Assembly: GCA_963674945.2 (NCBI GenBank) | Contig: CAXXWQ010000004.1 | Span: forward strand, 256,001 to 320,000 | Direction: 5' to 3' | Source: an uncultured Desulfosarcina sp. | GTDB taxonomy: Bacteria; Desulfobacterota; Desulfobacteria; Desulfobacterales; Desulfosarcinaceae | Length of the DNA: 64,000 bases | In this document: in pieces, positions 54,205-64,000 of the stretch | How positions within the stretch are numbered: the first letter of the stretch is position 1 | How the letters are laid out: every line of letters starts with the position of its first letter | The notes under the pieces: model-generated | What the model was told of the DNA's origin: nothing | What the model saw: only the letters and a program-made list of their open reading frames with translations | Database searches by the model: none | Program-made: the position numbers and the translations under genes

Positions 54205-54504
54205 CTACTCTTTCTCTTCATATGCCATTTCCGCCCGTTCTTCCAACCGCAGCATCTCGCCCTCGGAAACGATCTCTTTTTCCACCAAGATATCACCGAT
54301 ACCGGCCCAGCGAAGGGCATCTACTTCCAAAATCGTTTTCGGCCGTTTGTTTTCCAGGCTGTAAAATGTATATTCCAGCGTCAATTCACCCTTTGGCAAA
54401 ATCGAAAAAGAACGCTTATAGTAGATGAAATGGTGGCTGAGAACATAATAACCCGCCGCGATACAAATACCAATGATGATGTATTTCTTAATCTGATTCC
54501 ACAT
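54205..54504 (-). CDS. membrane-anchored hypothetical protein
   Basis: GGAGG RBS, N-terminal TM; start overlaps the stop region of the protease gene. Confidence 0.7.
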
Positions 54505-57145
54505 TACCACTTCCTCCCAATCGTCGGGTGGTCGATTCTTCCGAGCACAACAATTGGCTGTCGAAAAGATTGATATTGAACTCGGTGCGGAAGTTCAACC
54601 CTGAAGCATTTTTATCAACGGTGATCACGCTGGGCTGATCGATGCTGATGTATGCACCGAAGGCGTTTCCCACATCGCCGAGGACGGAATCGTTGTCCAT
54701 ATCGCTGCCGGCATAGAGCAGGTATTGTCCTTTGGCGACATTTGAGAAGGAAAAATGATAAATCCCATCGATAAGGGTGGCCTGTACCTCTTCCAACGCG
54801 TCATGGGTTTCCGGATCCAGCAAAAGGACGTAGTGATGGCCTGCATCCGCAAACTGGTCATCACTGCCGACTTGCATGTACACGGGAACATAAACGGTAT
54901 TAATGGAGGAGACAATGGTAATCAGCCCCCCAAAAGCACCATCGGCCAATCCGGTGCGAGCCACCGATACCCGATACGTTCCCAGTCCATCATCGTCGAC
55001 CGTTTCTGATTCGACGGACAGCCAGTCCGCGTCATCAATAAGGGAATCGACGATCAAGGGCGACTCGACAGAACCTGTTTTTTCGATATTGAGGATCGCC
55101 GTCGAGATGGAGTTACCCAGATCGATCATCGCCGGATCGGCAATCAACGCAGTGGGAACAATCCCTCCCAGAACGGCGTCGACTGCCTTTTGAGCATCGA
55201 TCATGCCATAACCATATATTTCATCCTTGCCGGGAGCACCCAGGTCTTGTGTGATGGCCCCGCTTCGAAGCAGATCGAAGAAATCATCGGCGCTCATTTC
55301 CGGCCAGACCGCCTTCATCAGCGCGGCCACGCCCGCGACATGGGGTGCCGCCATGGAGGTTCCCTGTTTGAAACCATAGACCAGCGAAATGGTACCGGCG
55401 GCATCGTCACCTGAGGTACTCAACACACCATCCGGATAACCATCACCGTTCAGGTCAGCCGTATTGTCACCACCGGGTGCGGCGACATCGACGGTATCGC
55501 CGAAACTGGAGTAGTAGGCGAGATTGGCAGCCTGGTCAAGGGCGCTGACGGAAACGACGTTGTCATAGGCCGCGGGATAGCTCTTGTCATCTCTGGCCTT
55601 GTTACCCGCCGCGGCGACGACGATGATTCCCATCTGGCGGATGGTGTCGAACAGGCTCTGTTCGATCGTGGAGAGCCCGCCGCCACCAAAACTCAGGTTG
55701 ATGATATCCGCCGGTTTGCCGGGCACCGTTCCCGATGAATTGGATAGCCCCGCCGCATACCGAACGGCCTGGAAGATGTCCCAGCTGGTGCCGCCGCCGA
55801 CCCCCAATGCCCGTACCGGCATGATACGCGCGGCATTCCACCCCACACCGGCCACACCGACACCATTGTTGGTATGGGCGCCGATGGTTCCGGCCACGTG
55901 GGTGCCGTGGAAAGTGGAACCGTCCTCGGCCTGGTCGCCCGGATCATAGGGATTGGGATCGATCCCGTCTCGATCACTCGGATCGGACTCCTCTCCCTCC
56001 ATATCCGGAGAACTTACGAAGTCGTACCCATCCGATGTCAGCCGGGCGGAAAGATCCGGATGGTCGAGCAAAACACCGGTATCCACGACGGCAACCACCA
56101 CCTCATCGTTACCGGTGTAAGTATCCCACGCCTCTGGCAGATGAATCAGGTCGTAGTGCCACTGTTTGTCAAAATGGGTGTCGCTGGGCTGTAAAAAAGG
56201 CCGGCGAATGAAATTCGGTGCGGCATCCTCGATATCCATTCTCCGCTTCATGGCCTTGATCACCCGAAGGGTGTCCAGCTTGCGCCGCAGCGGTTCGGAG
56301 ACGAATCCGGAAGAGACCGATTTAGAAGACGAAGACCGGAGACCGAGGGTATGAAGTAGGGTTCGGGTCTGATCGCCCGTCGAAAAAGAAAGACGTATCA
56401 CCCGTTCTTTGGATCCTTCGGCCAAAACGGCACCCTTGTTCTTCCCACCGAGAATAGACTGGAGCTCTGTCACCGATGATATTTGATCTCGGGTAACGCG
56501 GACCAGGATTTCCCCCGGCACGAAATCGTGGCGCAACCGAACGCCGGCCGTATCGCTTCCACCGGCAGCGCTACCGATGTTCAAGTTGTAATTGGATGCA
56601 TTGACGGTCATCTGCGGATCATCCACCAGCCTTACCTCGACCAAATAATCACCGTCTTCGATTATACTGAGAGATTCGTTTTGGCCCGCGCCGAGGGCCG
56701 CATCCACCAGAGTGAGATCATCGGCCCGGTACAGGTACAGATCCATATCCGTGGTATCGGGATTTGGGATGTACAATTGGATCGAATCCCCCGCCTTTAG
56801 CCGAATGCGGTAGTAGTCGGCAGGATCCCCTCCTTCTGTGGAACGCCCGGGTGCTCCCTGACCGGCAAGATTGAGATAACCGGCCAGGATGACAGGAACA
56901 TAGAGCTGCTGTGCGGTCTCCGGAGTGTCGTTGGAGGCATAGGATGCATTTGGGTCATTCACGTCACTGTCAACGGCGGAAGATCCGGAAGGCAAAATCA
57001 AGCCATCGATATTATAAAATCCTGACAAGGATGTAGCGCCGTTGGGAGCGTTGTCGTCCCCTCCCCCGAAGCAACCGGTCAGAATCAGTGTCAGAAAAAG
57101 AAACAGGACGTTTCTGGCCCGGCCATTGGGCGGACATCCTATCAT
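54488..57145 (-). CDS. S8 (subtilisin-like) serine protease lipoprotein with PPC-like domain
   Basis: lipobox LTGC, catalytic VAVVDTG / HGTHVAG / AAAGN / GTSMAAP. Confidence 0.93.
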
Positions 57146-57166
57146 TGCAGGCCCCCGTTTTTCGAT

Positions 57167-58465
57167 TTAATCAGATCCTGCAACGGCGCCGATAAAGCAC
57201 CATATGGAACCGGAATAAGCCATGGTTGTGGCTTCGGCGGAACCGCTGTATTCGGAGTCGGCCGCATCGACATAGGCACGAACACGATAGTAATAGACGG
57301 TATCGCTGGACAGACCATTGTCTTCATATGTTGTTGTGTCCTCAACGACGGTAGCGATCTGAACGTAATTCTCCTCGTCATCCTTGCTTCGCTCGATTTT
57401 AAATCCCCGCTCATCGTCGCTGTTGTCGATCCAACTGATTTCGATGGTGGTCTCGTTTTTTTCCTCAGCCTCGAGGCCGGTGGGACGATCCGGTGGCGTA
57501 TCTCCGATGAACGCCCCGATACCGTAGGCATCGTCGAGTGTATCGACGGTGACTTCGGTGACGTTTTCCTCCTCCACGTCGATGCTGCTGATGCGCCCAC
57601 CGGACTGATGGACGATATATGCATAATTACCATTTCGCGGCGCGGCAATGCCACGGGGCGTGCCGCCAACCCGATAGGTGCCGATGATCGTATGCGCCGG
57701 AGATCGTATCACCGTTACCGTATCGTCTGCACTATTGGTCACGAAGACGTATGCGCCGTCTCCCCCAACCGCCACGCCCCATGGTTCATCACCCACGGAA
57801 ATGGTATCGACCACCTCGTTTTCGGCCGTATCGATTACCGATACGGTGTCCGAAAAGGTGTTGGCAACATATACATAATCGCCGGCCGGCGTCACGGCCA
57901 CCCCCGTTGGACCGTCTCCCACGTTTGAAATTGTCGTCTCACCATCCTTGTCAACGACACTGACGCTGTCGTCGTCGTGATTGGTCACATAGGCGACAGG
58001 TGTATTTTTGTCTCGATCATAATGAGCCGCCACGCCCCATGGCCCCTTTCCTACTTCAATGGTTTCATTGACCGTCCGGCTCGAGACAAAAATCTCAGTA
58101 ATTGTATCGTCCTCAAAATTGGCAACATAAGCATAATTTCCATTTGGTTCCACGGCGACGCCCCTCGGGGATGCGCCCACATCCACCTGGGATGGAGTCC
58201 CTGAAAAATCACCCGTATTGATAAACGATACGGAATCCTCACCGGTCCGGGTTACCAATACCTGCAGCCCATCCGGCGTCACGGCACAGCCGTATGGGCT
58301 GCCGGAGATCTCGGTTTCAAGGGTCGATTCACTGTCCGCGAGCACCCGAATCACTTCGTCGGCGCCACCGTTTGCGATGTATGCGGTGGTCTCGGCCCGG
58401 ATGAGGGATGGGGCAATCACTGACAGCATGACTGTCAGAATGAAGAAGGATACGGTTCGATTCAT
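57167..58465 (-). CDS. secreted YVTN/YncE beta-propeller + fibronectin type III protein
   Basis: signal peptide, repeated P.GVAV.P.G...YV.N...DTVSVI, Fn3 (W.DNS..E.GF.IER..YYYRVRA), C-terminal WCFI. Confidence 0.9.
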   Translation of the reverse strand: MNRTVSFFILTVMLSVIAPSLIRAETTAYIANGGADEVIRVLADSESTLETEISGSPYGCAVTPDGLQVLVTRTGEDSVSFINTGDFSGTPSQVDVGASPRGVAVEPNGNYAYVANFEDDTITEIFVSSRTVNETIEVGKGPWGVAAHYDRDKNTPVAYVTNHDDDSVSVVDKDGETTISNVGDGPTGVAVTPAGDYVYVANTFSDTVSVIDTAENEVVDTISVGDEPWGVAVGGDGAYVFVTNSADDTVTVIRSPAHTIIGTYRVGGTPRGIAAPRNGNYAYIVHQSGGRISSIDVEEENVTEVTVDTLDDAYGIGAFIGDTPPDRPTGLEAEEKNETTIEISWIDNSDDERGFKIERSKDDEENYVQIATVVEDTTTYEDNGLSSDTVYYYRVRAYVDAADSEYSGSAEATTMAYSGSIWCFIGAVAGSD

Positions 58466-58598: not shown

Positions 58599-59663
58599 TC
58601 AATTATTCTCCCAGTATTCGGGAGGCATATCCGTGGCCAGGGCCAGTGCACCATCGGCACCCCCGAATAGTGGATCCGAGACAATATGAACATTACAGGG
58701 GCCATACTCTTTCAGCACCTGCTCTATATGATTGCGAAGGCCTTTTATCTGGCTGCCTCCCCCCGCGAGTATAATGTTGCTGCGGACTTTCCTTTGAAAT
58801 TCCGGGTCGAATTTCGCGATGAGTTCCAGCATGGTTTCCACCAACCCCGGCAAAATACTTTCGCAGGCACGTCGCATTTCCGATGTAATGTCGTGCATGG
58901 TCGGTTTTCCGTCCACCGGGATTTCAACATGCACTTCATTTTCCGGTTCTCCGATGAAGCTGTGCTCTTCCTTGAAACGTCGTACCATATTTAACGTAAA
59001 ATCGGCGTCAGGATACCGTTCATGCAGATAGGTCTGAAGCAGATGGTCGATATGATCACCGGCGGTAAAGACGGTTCGCTGGTCCTCCTCGGTGGGTATC
59101 GTGCCGGACATGATACAAAAATCCATTGTCCCGGCACCGATATCAATGACCATTGCATTGTTCAGGGCATCGAGGCCGTAAGCGACGGAAAAAGGTTCGG
59201 TAACCACCATGATCTCGTCGGCGAAATCGGCCACAAGACGCTTGATGGCGATCTTGTTGGCCTTGAAGGACTCGGATGGCACGCCGACGATCGCACGAGC
59301 TTTCTTGTAACCGTTATTTGCCTTTGCATTCTGGATCAGATGGCCGATCAACTCCTTTACGGCTGCTTCGCTTCGTTCGGAACCGTCTTTGATGACGCCG
59401 TTTTCCAGGGGACGGAAGATCTCCAGAGAGAGTCTGTTATCCAAGGCGTCCTCTCCGAACAATATCGGTTTGCCCAAAACTTTGCGAGCAACAAAATCCT
59501 TGGGCCACCCCACGTAACTTTCCACCCAATTTTTATTGCCGTTGCTTGCGGATATTGCGCTCCTGGACGTACCCAGATCGATTCCGATGTTGAGGATCTC
59601 ATCTTTTTTCCTGGCCTCTTTTGTTTCGTTTCCCTCATCGACGGTTTCTTGATTCTTGCCCAT
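58599..59663 (-). CDS. MamK-like actin-family ATPase
   Basis: IGIDLGTS, SYVGWPKD, RPLENGVIK, EPFSVAYG, DIGAGT, AGDHID, LAGGGSQ, C-terminal DMPPEYW; MamK-type rather than MreB-type signatures. Confidence 0.85.
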   Translation of the reverse strand: MGKNQETVDEGNETKEARKKDEILNIGIDLGTSRSAISASNGNKNWVESYVGWPKDFVARKVLGKPILFGEDALDNRLSLEIFRPLENGVIKDGSERSEAAVKELIGHLIQNAKANNGYKKARAIVGVPSESFKANKIAIKRLVADFADEIMVVTEPFSVAYGLDALNNAMVIDIGAGTMDFCIMSGTIPTEEDQRTVFTAGDHIDHLLQTYLHERYPDADFTLNMVRRFKEEHSFIGEPENEVHVEIPVDGKPTMHDITSEMRRACESILPGLVETMLELIAKFDPEFQRKVRSNIILAGGGSQIKGLRNHIEQVLKEYGPCNVHIVSDPLFGGADGALALATDMPPEYWENN

Positions 59664-59664
59664 C

Positions 59665-60819
59665 TTACGATTCTCCTTTTGCTATTTTTAATTGCTGTGT
59701 TTCCAAATAAGAAACAATGCCTTCTTCTATGTACTTTGCCACCTTTTCCCGATAGCTGGTCAAGGACAGTTTGGCCTCTTCCTCCGCTTTCGAGATGCAC
59801 GATATTTCCACAAGGACGCTGGGCACCTCTATCTGGGAAAGAACTACGAATGGCGCCATCTTGACTCCTGAATCGAGGATGCTTTCATCTTGATGTTTCA
59901 AATTTCTGAAAAGACTCGTCTGAATGTTGGCGGCCAGCCTGGCAGATTCCTGGCGCTTTACCGTATTGCCCAGATCCTCAATGATCGCATCCAACTCACC
60001 CACGGAAAATTTTGACGCTTTGTTTTCCCGTTCTGCTGCACGCAGGGACTGGATGTTCAATGGAGGCCCGAAATAGTATGTTTCAATCAGATTGACGTCC
60101 TTTTGGGGCAGGCTGTTGACGTGTATGGAAATAAAAAGATCCGCCGAATTGGCCTTTGCAAATTCGACCCTGTCCGCCAGAGAGAGAGTTCGATCGTTTT
60201 CACGGGTAAGCAAAACGTTGTAAAGGTCCAATGTGTTCAATCGTTTCCTGAGCTTGACGGCCACATCCAGGGTAATGTATTTTTCTCTTGTCCCATCGGC
60301 TCCGATGGCGCCTGGATCCTTTCCGCCATGTCCCGGATCGATGACGATTGTTTTTACCCCCAATCCGAATACCGACGAAAGACGAACGGGGGCATTGGAC
60401 GACAACAGAAGATCGAAATCCGCCAGGCTCTGATCGGATGGTTCCTGCCCGTCCCAGTTTGCAGATTTACAAAGCAGTTGTGTTGAAGCAGAAACGGTTC
60501 GTTCCATTCCAGTGTCTATGTAACCCATCGGTTTGTCGACGGTCAGATGCATATTCGATTTCGACATGGACGAATTTTTTGGCCGTGACGCATACGGGTC
60601 TTTTTTTTGCGTCAATTCGTATGTAAAAGAGCTTGTAGCCAAGGCAATGACGATCAGAACAATACGTAAAATTTTGATGTGGGTTCTGCTGTTTGGTGCC
60701 AATACAGCATCGGGGTCGACTTTTTGAACGTACTTTCCTTCAAATCTTAAATTGTCGACGTAAATATCCCGAAGAATCGTTTTTTTCAGTTCGGTATTTC
60801 GCCTGCCGTGCGAAAGCAT
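59665..60819 (-). CDS. membrane-anchored N-acetylmuramoyl-L-alanine amidase (Amidase_3)
   Basis: IDPGHGGKDPGA..EK, FISIHVNS, VLVE Zn/catalytic residues; hydrophobic segment ILRIVLIVIALA at about aa 50-62. Confidence 0.93.
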   Translation of the reverse strand: MLSHGRRNTELKKTILRDIYVDNLRFEGKYVQKVDPDAVLAPNSRTHIKILRIVLIVIALATSSFTYELTQKKDPYASRPKNSSMSKSNMHLTVDKPMGYIDTGMERTVSASTQLLCKSANWDGQEPSDQSLADFDLLLSSNAPVRLSSVFGLGVKTIVIDPGHGGKDPGAIGADGTREKYITLDVAVKLRKRLNTLDLYNVLLTRENDRTLSLADRVEFAKANSADLFISIHVNSLPQKDVNLIETYYFGPPLNIQSLRAAERENKASKFSVGELDAIIEDLGNTVKRQESARLAANIQTSLFRNLKHQDESILDSGVKMAPFVVLSQIEVPSVLVEISCISKAEEEAKLSLTSYREKVAKYIEEGIVSYLETQQLKIAKGES

Positions 60820-60904
60820 GTATAAATTTCACTTAAAAGGGGGCAATCAGGCCCGTTTTAAAACCTTTTCCGACCGTTCGGATTCACCATCGGGATAACA
60901 AAAA

Positions 60905-60922
60905 AGCAATATTCATGCCGAA
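60905..60922 (-). promoter_or_regulatory. sigma54 (-24/-12) promoter of the amidase / MamK-like operon
   Basis: minus strand TTCGGCATGAATATTGCT: GG-N10-GC with TTGC, about 85 nt upstream of ATG 60819. Confidence 0.7.
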
Positions 60923-62747: not shown

Positions 62748-64000
62748 CCTGATTAAAACACTATAACCAATTGATAAAACATATATATTATGGTAATATT
62801 AGGGCACTAAACGCTCACTTCGGAGGTGAAATCAATGCGGCGTCCGATCACCATAAAACACGAGATGGAAAAACTTGCCAGTCATAGCGGATTGATCAAT
62901 ATCGGCGCATTACTTGATGCGATAAATTTCAGGTTCCGTTTCGAAAAGATCAACGGCGTCCATTGTGTAGACCCGAAAATTTCTCATGGTGACATTTTAG
63001 CTTCGATGATTGCTCTCATGAGTATTGGTAAACCTGATTACGATGCGATCGAGATTTTTCGTGAGAAGCAAGAATTTTTCAACAAGGCCATTGGCAATCG
63101 TGCATGCCCGTCAAGCCCGACATTGCGTCAGCGAATCGATTTGATCGGCAACCAAGCCGATAAGCTGATTAAGGATGCAGGCGTTGATTTGGTTCGATCC
63201 TGCGCTCCGGCGATTTCACCCATCCAAACCAGTGCGGGTGATTTCCTTCCTTTGGATATGGATGTGAGTCCGTTTGACAACTCAAAGACTCAAAAGGAAG
63301 GCGTTTCCAGAACCTACAAAGGCACGGATGGCTTCGCTCCGATCTTTGCCTACCTGGGCACCGAGGGGTATCTGGTGAATCTTGAGTTCAGAGAAGGAAA
63401 ACAACACTGCCAGAAAAACACCCCCGAATTTATCAACGCCACCTTGGATTATGCCAGGCAAATTACCGATCAGCCTATTTTGATGAGGTTGGATTCAGGA
63501 AACGACAGTCAAGACAACTTTCCTGACGATTCACGAAAGAATGTCCACTTTATCATCAAACGCAATTTGCGTAGAGAATCTGTTCAAAAGTGGGTTGATC
63601 TGGCAAAAAAATCCGGCAAGCAACAGCATTGCCGCTCAGGAAAATGTGTATGGATCGGAAAGACGATTGAAGACATCAACGGCAATCCATTGCGCTACCC
63701 AATCATCTTTGAGGTTACCGAAAGGCATACCAAAAAGGGCCAAGTACTGCTGTTCCCCGAGTATCAGATCGATACCTATTGGTGCAGCCTCGCACAGTTG
63801 CCACCGGATGAGGTGATTCGACTTTATCACGATCACGGTACCAGCGAGCAGTTTCACTCCGAACTCAAATCCGACATGGGCCTGGAGCGCTTGCCGAGCG
63901 GTCATTTTTCCACCAATAGCTTGATTCTTCATTTGGCGATGCTGACGTACAACATGCTACGGATTATCGGACAAATCAGCATCGAAGAGAGTGATCCGAC
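62748..64000 (+). mobile_element. IS1380-family insertion sequence (runs off the window end)
   Basis: probable left end CCTGATT at 62748 (inferred from family CC ends), AT-rich leader, transposase ORF. Confidence 0.85.
62835..64000 (+). CDS. IS1380-family DDE transposase (3' end outside window)
   Basis: GGAGGTG RBS, frame open to the end: PSSPTLRQR, LDMDVSPFDNS, TYKG..GFAP, RLDSG, YHDHGTSEQFHSELKSD. Confidence 0.92.
   Translation, partial: MRRPITIKHEMEKLASHSGLINIGALLDAINFRFRFEKINGVHCVDPKISHGDILASMIALMSIGKPDYDAIEIFREKQEFFNKAIGNRACPSSPTLRQRIDLIGNQADKLIKDAGVDLVRSCAPAISPIQTSAGDFLPLDMDVSPFDNSKTQKEGVSRTYKGTDGFAPIFAYLGTEGYLVNLEFREGKQHCQKNTPEFINATLDYARQITDQPILMRLDSGNDSQDNFPDDSRKNVHFIIKRNLRRESVQKWVDLAKKSGKQQHCRSGKCVWIGKTIEDINGNPLRYPIIFEVTERHTKKGQVLLFPEYQIDTYWCSLAQLPPDEVIRLYHDHGTSEQFHSELKSDMGLERLPSGHFSTNSLILHLAMLTYNMLRIIGQISIEESDP

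Follow-up and report, generated by a model that had tools for sequence, protein, structure and literature searches.

The 64,000-nucleotide stretch of DNA from an uncultured Desulfosarcina sp. analysed here (the window) carries a two-gene unit, in which the gene of a cell-wall amidase is followed by that of a MamK/BeeR-related actin-like ATPase. We propose that the actin filament docks the N-terminal tail of the amidase and thereby sets where this membrane-tethered, latent enzyme can cut, a reading to which we give a probability of roughly 0.6. The gene pair itself, its exclusivity, the distinct clade of the actin, whose ATPase motifs are intact, as well as the conserved tail, the hydrophobic helix and the catalytic residues of the amidase, are observed here; filament formation, topology, the contact between tail and actin, activation and purpose are what we infer. 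The pair is real and apparently represents an undescribed variant. That the filament positions the amidase had been suggested in the initial annotation of this DNA, and the suggestion is supported: the actin does not branch with MreB, no mam cluster was found and the pairing is conserved.

The two genes and their junction are located as follows.

59665..60819, minus strand: Amidase_3 gene (N-acetylmuramoyl-L-alanine amidase), 384 amino acids (aa), identified by its open reading frame (ORF), Pfam and a predicted model; predicted to be bitopic.
58599..59663, minus strand: MamK/BeeR-related actin-like ATPase gene, 354 aa, identified by its ORF, hidden Markov model (HMM), tree and model; member of the amidase-linked clade.
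59673..59678, minus strand: Shine-Dalgarno-like AAGGAG of the actin gene, within the final amidase codons, identified from the sequence.

The amidase gene is located upstream of the actin gene on the same strand, with a gap of 1 nucleotide (nt). The AAGGAG (59678-59673) is followed by 9 nt, among them the TAA stop of the amidase and a single spacer base, and then by the actin ATG, an arrangement suggesting that translation of the actin is coupled to that of the amidase. This agrees with the initial annotation, which had described a 384-aa Amidase_3 ORF ending 1 nt ahead of a 354-aa actin ORF, the ribosome-binding site of the actin inside the amidase end, and the actin signatures SYVGWPKD, EPFSVAYG, DIGAGTMDFCIMSGTIPTEEDQ and DMPPEYW, all of which are present. 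A promoter and terminator scan gave chance-level counts (5 vs 3.6 and 2 vs 3.3). The host genome (G000), which is 98.7% complete, contains a single copy of such an actin, and the nearest named locus is that of D. cetonica, with 85% identity.

The amidase-actin pairing is conserved across several phyla, and it is reciprocal among 401 Desulfobacterota genomes. In a GTDB sample of 27 loci, the amidase is located directly upstream in 19/19 loci with an actin identity of at least 55%, and in 0/8 loci with an identity of 46% or below. Two of the 19 linked loci are copies on one contig and one is frameshifted; together they span Desulfobacterota, Bacteroidota, Defluviicoccus, Rhodocyclaceae, Gammaproteobacteria and Competibacteraceae. 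The metagenome search, whose patterns favoured the amidase-linked clade, revealed the amidase in 77 of the best 80 of 588 matches, the other three having 40 nt or less of upstream DNA (77/77 testable). In Rhodothermales, the order of genome G460, 47 of 121 genomes encode the actin, and the amidase is present at 45 of the 46 loci fetched, the remaining locus comprising only 24 nt upstream (45/45 testable). Cultured carriers of the pair are Desulfosarcina cetonica JCM 12296 (L004) and Rhodocaloribacter litoris (WP_166980273.1). The non-mam actin matches of Rhodospirillales have the amidase in 3/3 testable cases. In the Desulfobacterota sample, 15 genomes pass the MamK model and four of these are amidase-linked; reciprocally, a profile of the subfamily amidase scores 423-529 bits in exactly the same 4/401 genomes, the next score being 283. 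Close to the host the pair is scarce (2 of the 31 genomes of the genus), and the genes flanking it vary from lineage to lineage. At a Defluviicoccus locus (L012:6571-7805), a frameshift interrupts the amidase, possibly through sequencing error or decay, and the actin is intact.

In one lineage, a gene encoding both a REC and a SPOR domain in one ORF is positioned after the actin at 16 loci, with SPOR found in 5/5 scanned. Since SPOR binds the denuded glycans produced by amidases (PMC8998562; here and below, PMC numbers refer to excerpts of the papers), this third gene points independently to the wall. In L105, L111, L132, L137 and L159 it is composed of REC, an acidic linker, a hydrophobic segment and SPOR, which resembles the layout of FtsN and adds an input for signalling.

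Three parts of the amidase are relevant to its placement and activity.

60742..60786, minus strand: conserved N-terminal helix, residues 12-26, KKTILRDIYVDNLRF; family pattern [RK]xxILRGVYE[DE]NL; candidate actin-docking motif.
60622..60678, minus strand: hydrophobic helix predicted to serve as membrane anchor; residues about 48-66.
59716..60348, minus strand: Amidase_3 catalytic domain, residues 158-368 (Pfam), with H164, E179, H233, E338 and the blocking-helix E265.

The predicted amidase model consists of a helix (residues 4-26), a second helix (residues 44-65), a disordered region (residues 66-152) and the catalytic domain. Of the 81 amidases with enough upstream DNA, 80 contain the pattern [ILVM]Lxx[VI]xxxN, the chance per protein being about 2% by a rough estimate. 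Among 76 distinct motifs, R/K is found at -3 in 98% and Y at +5 in 87%, whereas L and N are constant by definition of the pattern. Only the window amidase bears the motif significantly among the ORFs of the host genome (E 1e-4; next 0.15). Nonsynonymous divergence (pN) from D. cetonica is 0.14 for residues 1-30, 0.15 for the catalytic domain and 0.44-0.47 for the linkers, so the tail, which had been named as the docking site beforehand, equals the catalytic domain in conservation. The amidase N-terminus gave no match when sought among longer proteins, which is weak evidence.

The motif is separated from the hydrophobic segment by 23-44 aa, forming a basic linker (median net charge +5), and a further linker of 55-131 aa extends behind the segment; from this layout, an N-in topology is predicted. 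The 19-residue mean hydropathy (KD19) of the segment is 1.96 in the window amidase and at least 1.6 in 73 of 80 loci. Only 3 of 80 loci have a twin arginine (RR) where a Tat motif would place it, which together with the long conserved N-terminal region would favour an uncleaved anchor over a cleaved signal, as judged from the sequences. A reading of the motif as a Tat signal was rejected on this count and on the spacing.

Residues H164, E179, H233, E338 and E265 are invariant in 17/17 aligned rows. The best fold match of the amidase model is E. coli AmiA (8c2o), and in the alignment to this structure E265 corresponds to Glu167 of AmiA, whereas AmiA Asp135 is replaced by Asn235. Glu167 is the latch that fastens the AmiA blocking helix to the zinc (PMC10268282), and we thus predict that the window amidase stays latent before its activation. 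It shares with AmiA the blocking-helix latch, the Zn ligands and the catalytic Glu. AmiA, AmiB and AmiC are periplasmic and placed by AMIN or EnvC. The window amidase contains no AMIN, SPOR or LysM domain in a Pfam scan, and is therefore without a periplasmic address of its own.

The actin belongs to the MamK family by HMM, but is neither a magnetosome MamK nor a BeeR nor an MreB. Among the NCBIfam models, it passes MamK (NF040964; 426.4, cut-off 400) and fails both BeeR (NF053558; 212.6 vs 530) and MreB (83.9 vs 293). Mam-context MamKs of Rhodospirillales score about 490-549 on the MamK model, which many non-mam actins pass too. Its matches to sequences in the Protein Data Bank (PDB) reach 287 bits for MamK, 148 for BeeR and 58 for MreB. 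The AlphaFold2 model has a pLDDT of 84.5, with MamK (5ljw/5ljv) as the top Foldseek matches. Residues 1-19 have a pLDDT below 50, and this N-terminal stretch, which was compared with the disordered 30-50 aa extension of BeeR, is shorter in many homologues. The ATPase motifs are kept, with D29, G31, T32, E156 and DIGAG invariant in 29 homologues. The clade has conserved residues of its own (W46, F57, G94, E99, K134 and F182), which are rare among other MamK-like actins and are sequence-based candidates for a docking surface. Relative to D. cetonica, the nonsynonymous rate (dN) is 0.09 and the synonymous rate (dS) is 1.4.

The phylogeny called for in the initial annotation places the actin outside the mam-context MamK clade and apart from MreB, in line with the earlier statement that it is not MreB-type. 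In a FastTree tree of 126 rows, 42 amidase-linked rows and one context-free representative form one clade (0.969). In an IQ-TREE tree (LG+G4) of 56 rows hand-picked from these 126, the 16 amidase-linked rows group together (99/95), and the MamK clade is separate (100/99). The MamK rows derive from 30 Rhodospirillales loci, 26 of which have mamM inside the 1.5-kb flank; L087 and L090 carried the mam-context label though mamM was not found in their flank. An approximately unbiased (AU) test rejected the tree in which the window actin was forced into the MamK clade (p 1.25e-7). BeeR-like rows and P0122 group with the amidase-linked clade (96/96), a grouping that is tentative because of a long branch. 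Since the deep nodes are not resolved, the trees allow no conclusion on which function is ancestral.

The absence of a magnetosome context, noted earlier for the window, extends to the whole host genome for the MamA, MamM, MamI and MamP models, which score 79, 117.5, 37.5 and 41 bits against cut-offs of 200, 350, 80 and 300; mamE/O/Q/L and the mad genes were not searched directly. The MamA score is tetratricopeptide repeat (TPR) noise. Since these cut-offs are strict for Desulfobacterota, the same-order genome G362 was used as a control, and its tandem mamK is accompanied in the same stretch by MamM-model matches (247 and 184 bits) and MamI matches (78 and 60 bits). A full magnetosome island, which would have spoken for a second, displaced mamK, was thus sought with these four models, and no mam cluster was found. 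Five other carriers of the pair, from other groups, have no MamM above the cut-off. The weak MamI match of the host (G000:C3:778911-779192; L065:13912-14193, minus strand; 37.5 bits, E 1e-8, against 0/14 controls) was rejected as a magnetosome sign, as it lies in a housekeeping region and similar weak matches occur in other Desulfobacterota, including G362, where some are located away from the mamK cluster. Its neighbours, recognised by eye, are presumably rpsA, cmk and alaS/recA. The encoded 93-aa protein combines a two-helix membrane part with a coiled coil, is matched by similar genes in 4/5 Desulfobacterota tested, and may be a non-magnetosome relative of MamI.

In the mechanism that we propose, the actin would polymerise in an ATP-dependent manner below the inner membrane, by analogy with MamK and BeeR. 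The amidase would adopt an N-in/C-out orientation, in which the flexible linker of 55-131 aa reaches the wall. Binding of the actin to the cytoplasmic amidase helix would replace the AMIN domain that places ordinary septal amidases, and peptidoglycan would be cut only where the filament lies. The AmiA-type blocking helix may keep the amidase latent until a LytM-type or other activator arrives; the host genome has 8 M23 matches, among which LytM candidates may be found. The outcome may be accessory local remodelling, such as curvature, an extra separation plane or the opening of the wall at one spot, in addition to the core machines of MreB and AmiC. Canonical MreB (541 bits) and RodA are encoded on contig C1 and an AMIN-bearing amidase elsewhere on C4, so the pair is considered accessory. 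More specifically, the actin may be a distinct family, neighbouring BeeR and standing beside MamK, with a dynamic filament that uses the helical tail to hold and move the amidase directly; this claim stands at about even odds in our judgement. A bactofilin gene immediately follows rodA and closes the mreB region (G000:C1:32697-33101; L190:6697-7101, plus strand).

The closest parallel to this arrangement is the BacA-LmdC module of Hyphomonas neptunium and Rhodospirillum rubrum, in which LmdC residues 1-38 bind the bactofilin with a dissociation constant of about 15 uM (PMC10945521). Both systems are coupled two-gene operons with the bitopic hydrolase first and the cytoskeletal gene second (the topology being predicted here), and both have a short conserved cytoplasmic tail and occur in many phyla. 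They differ in the polymer, an actin-fold ATPase here and a nucleotide-independent beta-helical bactofilin in BacA; in the hydrolase, an autoinhibited-type Amidase_3 here and an M23 peptidase in LmdC; and in the tail, predicted to be an alpha-helix here and a beta-hairpin in LmdC. Because both proteins belong to other families, the pair is not a member of the BacA-LmdC system. The actin shares with MamK (5jyg/5ljv/5ljw) the fold (TM 0.85-0.86 to 5ljv_A and 5ljw_A), about 39% identity and the ATPase motifs, but it forms a separate clade without a mam cluster found, and its partner is a wall amidase instead of the MamJ/MamY/Mad adaptors. BeeR, a MamK-related three-stranded actin of non-magnetotactic Verrucomicrobiota (8r2n; PMC11929497), was left without an assigned function, and the words amidase and operon are absent from the excerpted text of its preprint. 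Like BeeR, the window actin is a MamK-related actin of non-magnetotactic bacteria, and the two tentatively join in the tree; it is 29% identical to BeeR, its N-terminus appears disordered over about 19 aa (30-50 in BeeR), and it occurs in different phyla. RodZ binds MreB via a short cytoplasmic part (PDB 2wus). Likewise, the bitopic envelope protein FtsN uses a short cytoplasmic part to bind the actin homologue FtsA (PMC8998562). The putative contact here would be of the same kind, though in FtsA-FtsN and MreB-RodZ the partner regulates synthases, whereas here the cytoplasmic motif is part of the hydrolase.

Several points weigh against the docking of the amidase by the filament. The pair is patchy (2/31 in the genus, 4/401 in the phylum) and most of its carriers are metagenome-assembled genomes (MAGs), and therefore no shape trait could be matched to it. 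The metagenome and Rhodothermales loci are interrelated and do not represent independent events; moreover, adjacent genes travel together, so linkage alone indicates a shared function, not contact. In the window amidase, an ALA site behind the hydrophobic segment makes signal-peptide cleavage possible, and the segment is short or weak in some amidases (KD below 1.6 in 7/80). In addition, the motif helix is amphipathic, which would also suit membrane binding or self-association.

Two alternatives are considered less probable. In the first, which we consider unlikely, the complex is the same with its logic reversed: the membrane helix of the amidase would anchor the filament, or the actin, as a switch driven by nucleotides, would sequester or license the amidase, and the cut would serve an envelope-spanning structure or organelle positioned by the filament. 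MamK positions cargo via adaptors (PMC10653835) and is anchored by MamJ/MamY, the amidase is the sole conserved membrane partner in most loci, and the latch glutamate implies regulated activity; however, the neighbourhoods compared contain no conserved cargo or appendage gene, and the only recurrent third gene encodes the wall-binding REC-SPOR protein. The second, to which we give the same low probability, is a shared pathway without direct contact, in which the N-terminal helix serves for membrane binding, dimerisation or export and the actin reaches the wall via other proteins. AmiA and AmiC are Tat substrates, and the amphipathic helix begins with [RK]xxIL, resembling their twin-arginine motif. 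The scarcity of RR and the 23-44 residues between motif and hydrophobic helix argue against this alternative, as does the restriction of the subfamily amidase to genomes with the clade actin among the 401 sampled.

A mobile element that combines a ParM-like segregation actin with an amidase for lysis or conjugation is largely refuted and very improbable. The patchy distribution, the amidase GC content of 47% (window 52%) and a DDE transposase gene about 2 kb away (62826) would fit it, but at E 1e-30 there are 0 matches in 72,556 plasmid records, only three viral loci were found (37-45% identity, under the 55% of amidase-linked loci, and not among the rows of the tree), and the flanks include housekeeping genes, such as EF-G and DNA pol III delta' in Bacteroidota. 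Least probable of all is a displaced magnetosome mamK with an accidental amidase neighbour, which can draw on the passed NF040964 cut-off and on MamK as the best PDB match but is refuted, as far as tested, by the AU test, by host MamM and MamI scores below those beside mamK in G362, and by the five other carriers without MamM above the cut-off.

No description of the amidase-actin pair, and no paper joining MamK, amidase and non-magnetotactic bacteria, was found in the open-access literature searched. MreB and FtsA, the actins of bacteria whose role at the wall is known, guide synthesis; for the direct placement of a hydrolase, proposed here for a nucleotide-driven filament, the sole precedent is the non-actin bactofilin-LmdC module. 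If the actin is such a distinct family, with a filament that directly holds and moves the amidase, it would be the first case of an actin steering wall cleavage rather than synthesis, and it would extend over Desulfobacterota, Rhodothermales and Proteobacteria. It would also suggest that the MamK/BeeR radiation had envelope-remodelling roles before or beside magnetosomes. The pair, with its 15-residue motif and two-gene unit, offers a testable function for one of many orphan MamK-like clades. Moreover, mamK serves as a magnetotaxis marker in metagenomes (PMC13200544), and the actins of the pair pass the NCBIfam MamK cut-off and are annotated 'MamK family', so they would give false magnetotaxis positives.

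In the window, the actin gene is followed on its own strand by two genes of higher GC content (55%), one for a YVTN beta-propeller-fn3 protein and one for an S8 protease (54488-58465, minus strand); they are common to none of the 28 related loci compared. The DDE_Tnp_1_4 transposase gene (62826-64000, plus strand) lies about 2 kb from the amidase start and runs past the window end.

Other MamK-like actins were met in different contexts. Tandem actin pairs of Desulfobacterota (L050:7708-10373, L051:7881-10734 and L052:8236-11045) score up to 494 bits; the L050 and L051 rows are inside the MamK clade, and the two genomes tested, G270 and G324, have no MamM-like gene above 111 bits. These tandem actins may be magnetosome relics or have another non-magnetic use. 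A MamK-like domain is located C-terminally in proteins of 523-1208 aa (P0131, P0132, P0133 and P0135), and the long N-terminal part has no Pfam match in P0131 and P0135, the two scanned. In an amidase-free MamK-like clade (L054:7745-11088; L062:2029-4106), the actin comes after either a long gene for an SMC-like coiled coil together with a 117-aa gene (family f49, 6/7 genomes) or a 344-aa coiled-coil gene located behind recA-alaS. The MamK-like actins of L022-L029, from Planctomycetota and others (42-46% identity, without amidase upstream), are preceded by a degenerate GGDEF-domain gene or by a gene of 258-265 aa that belongs to no known family.

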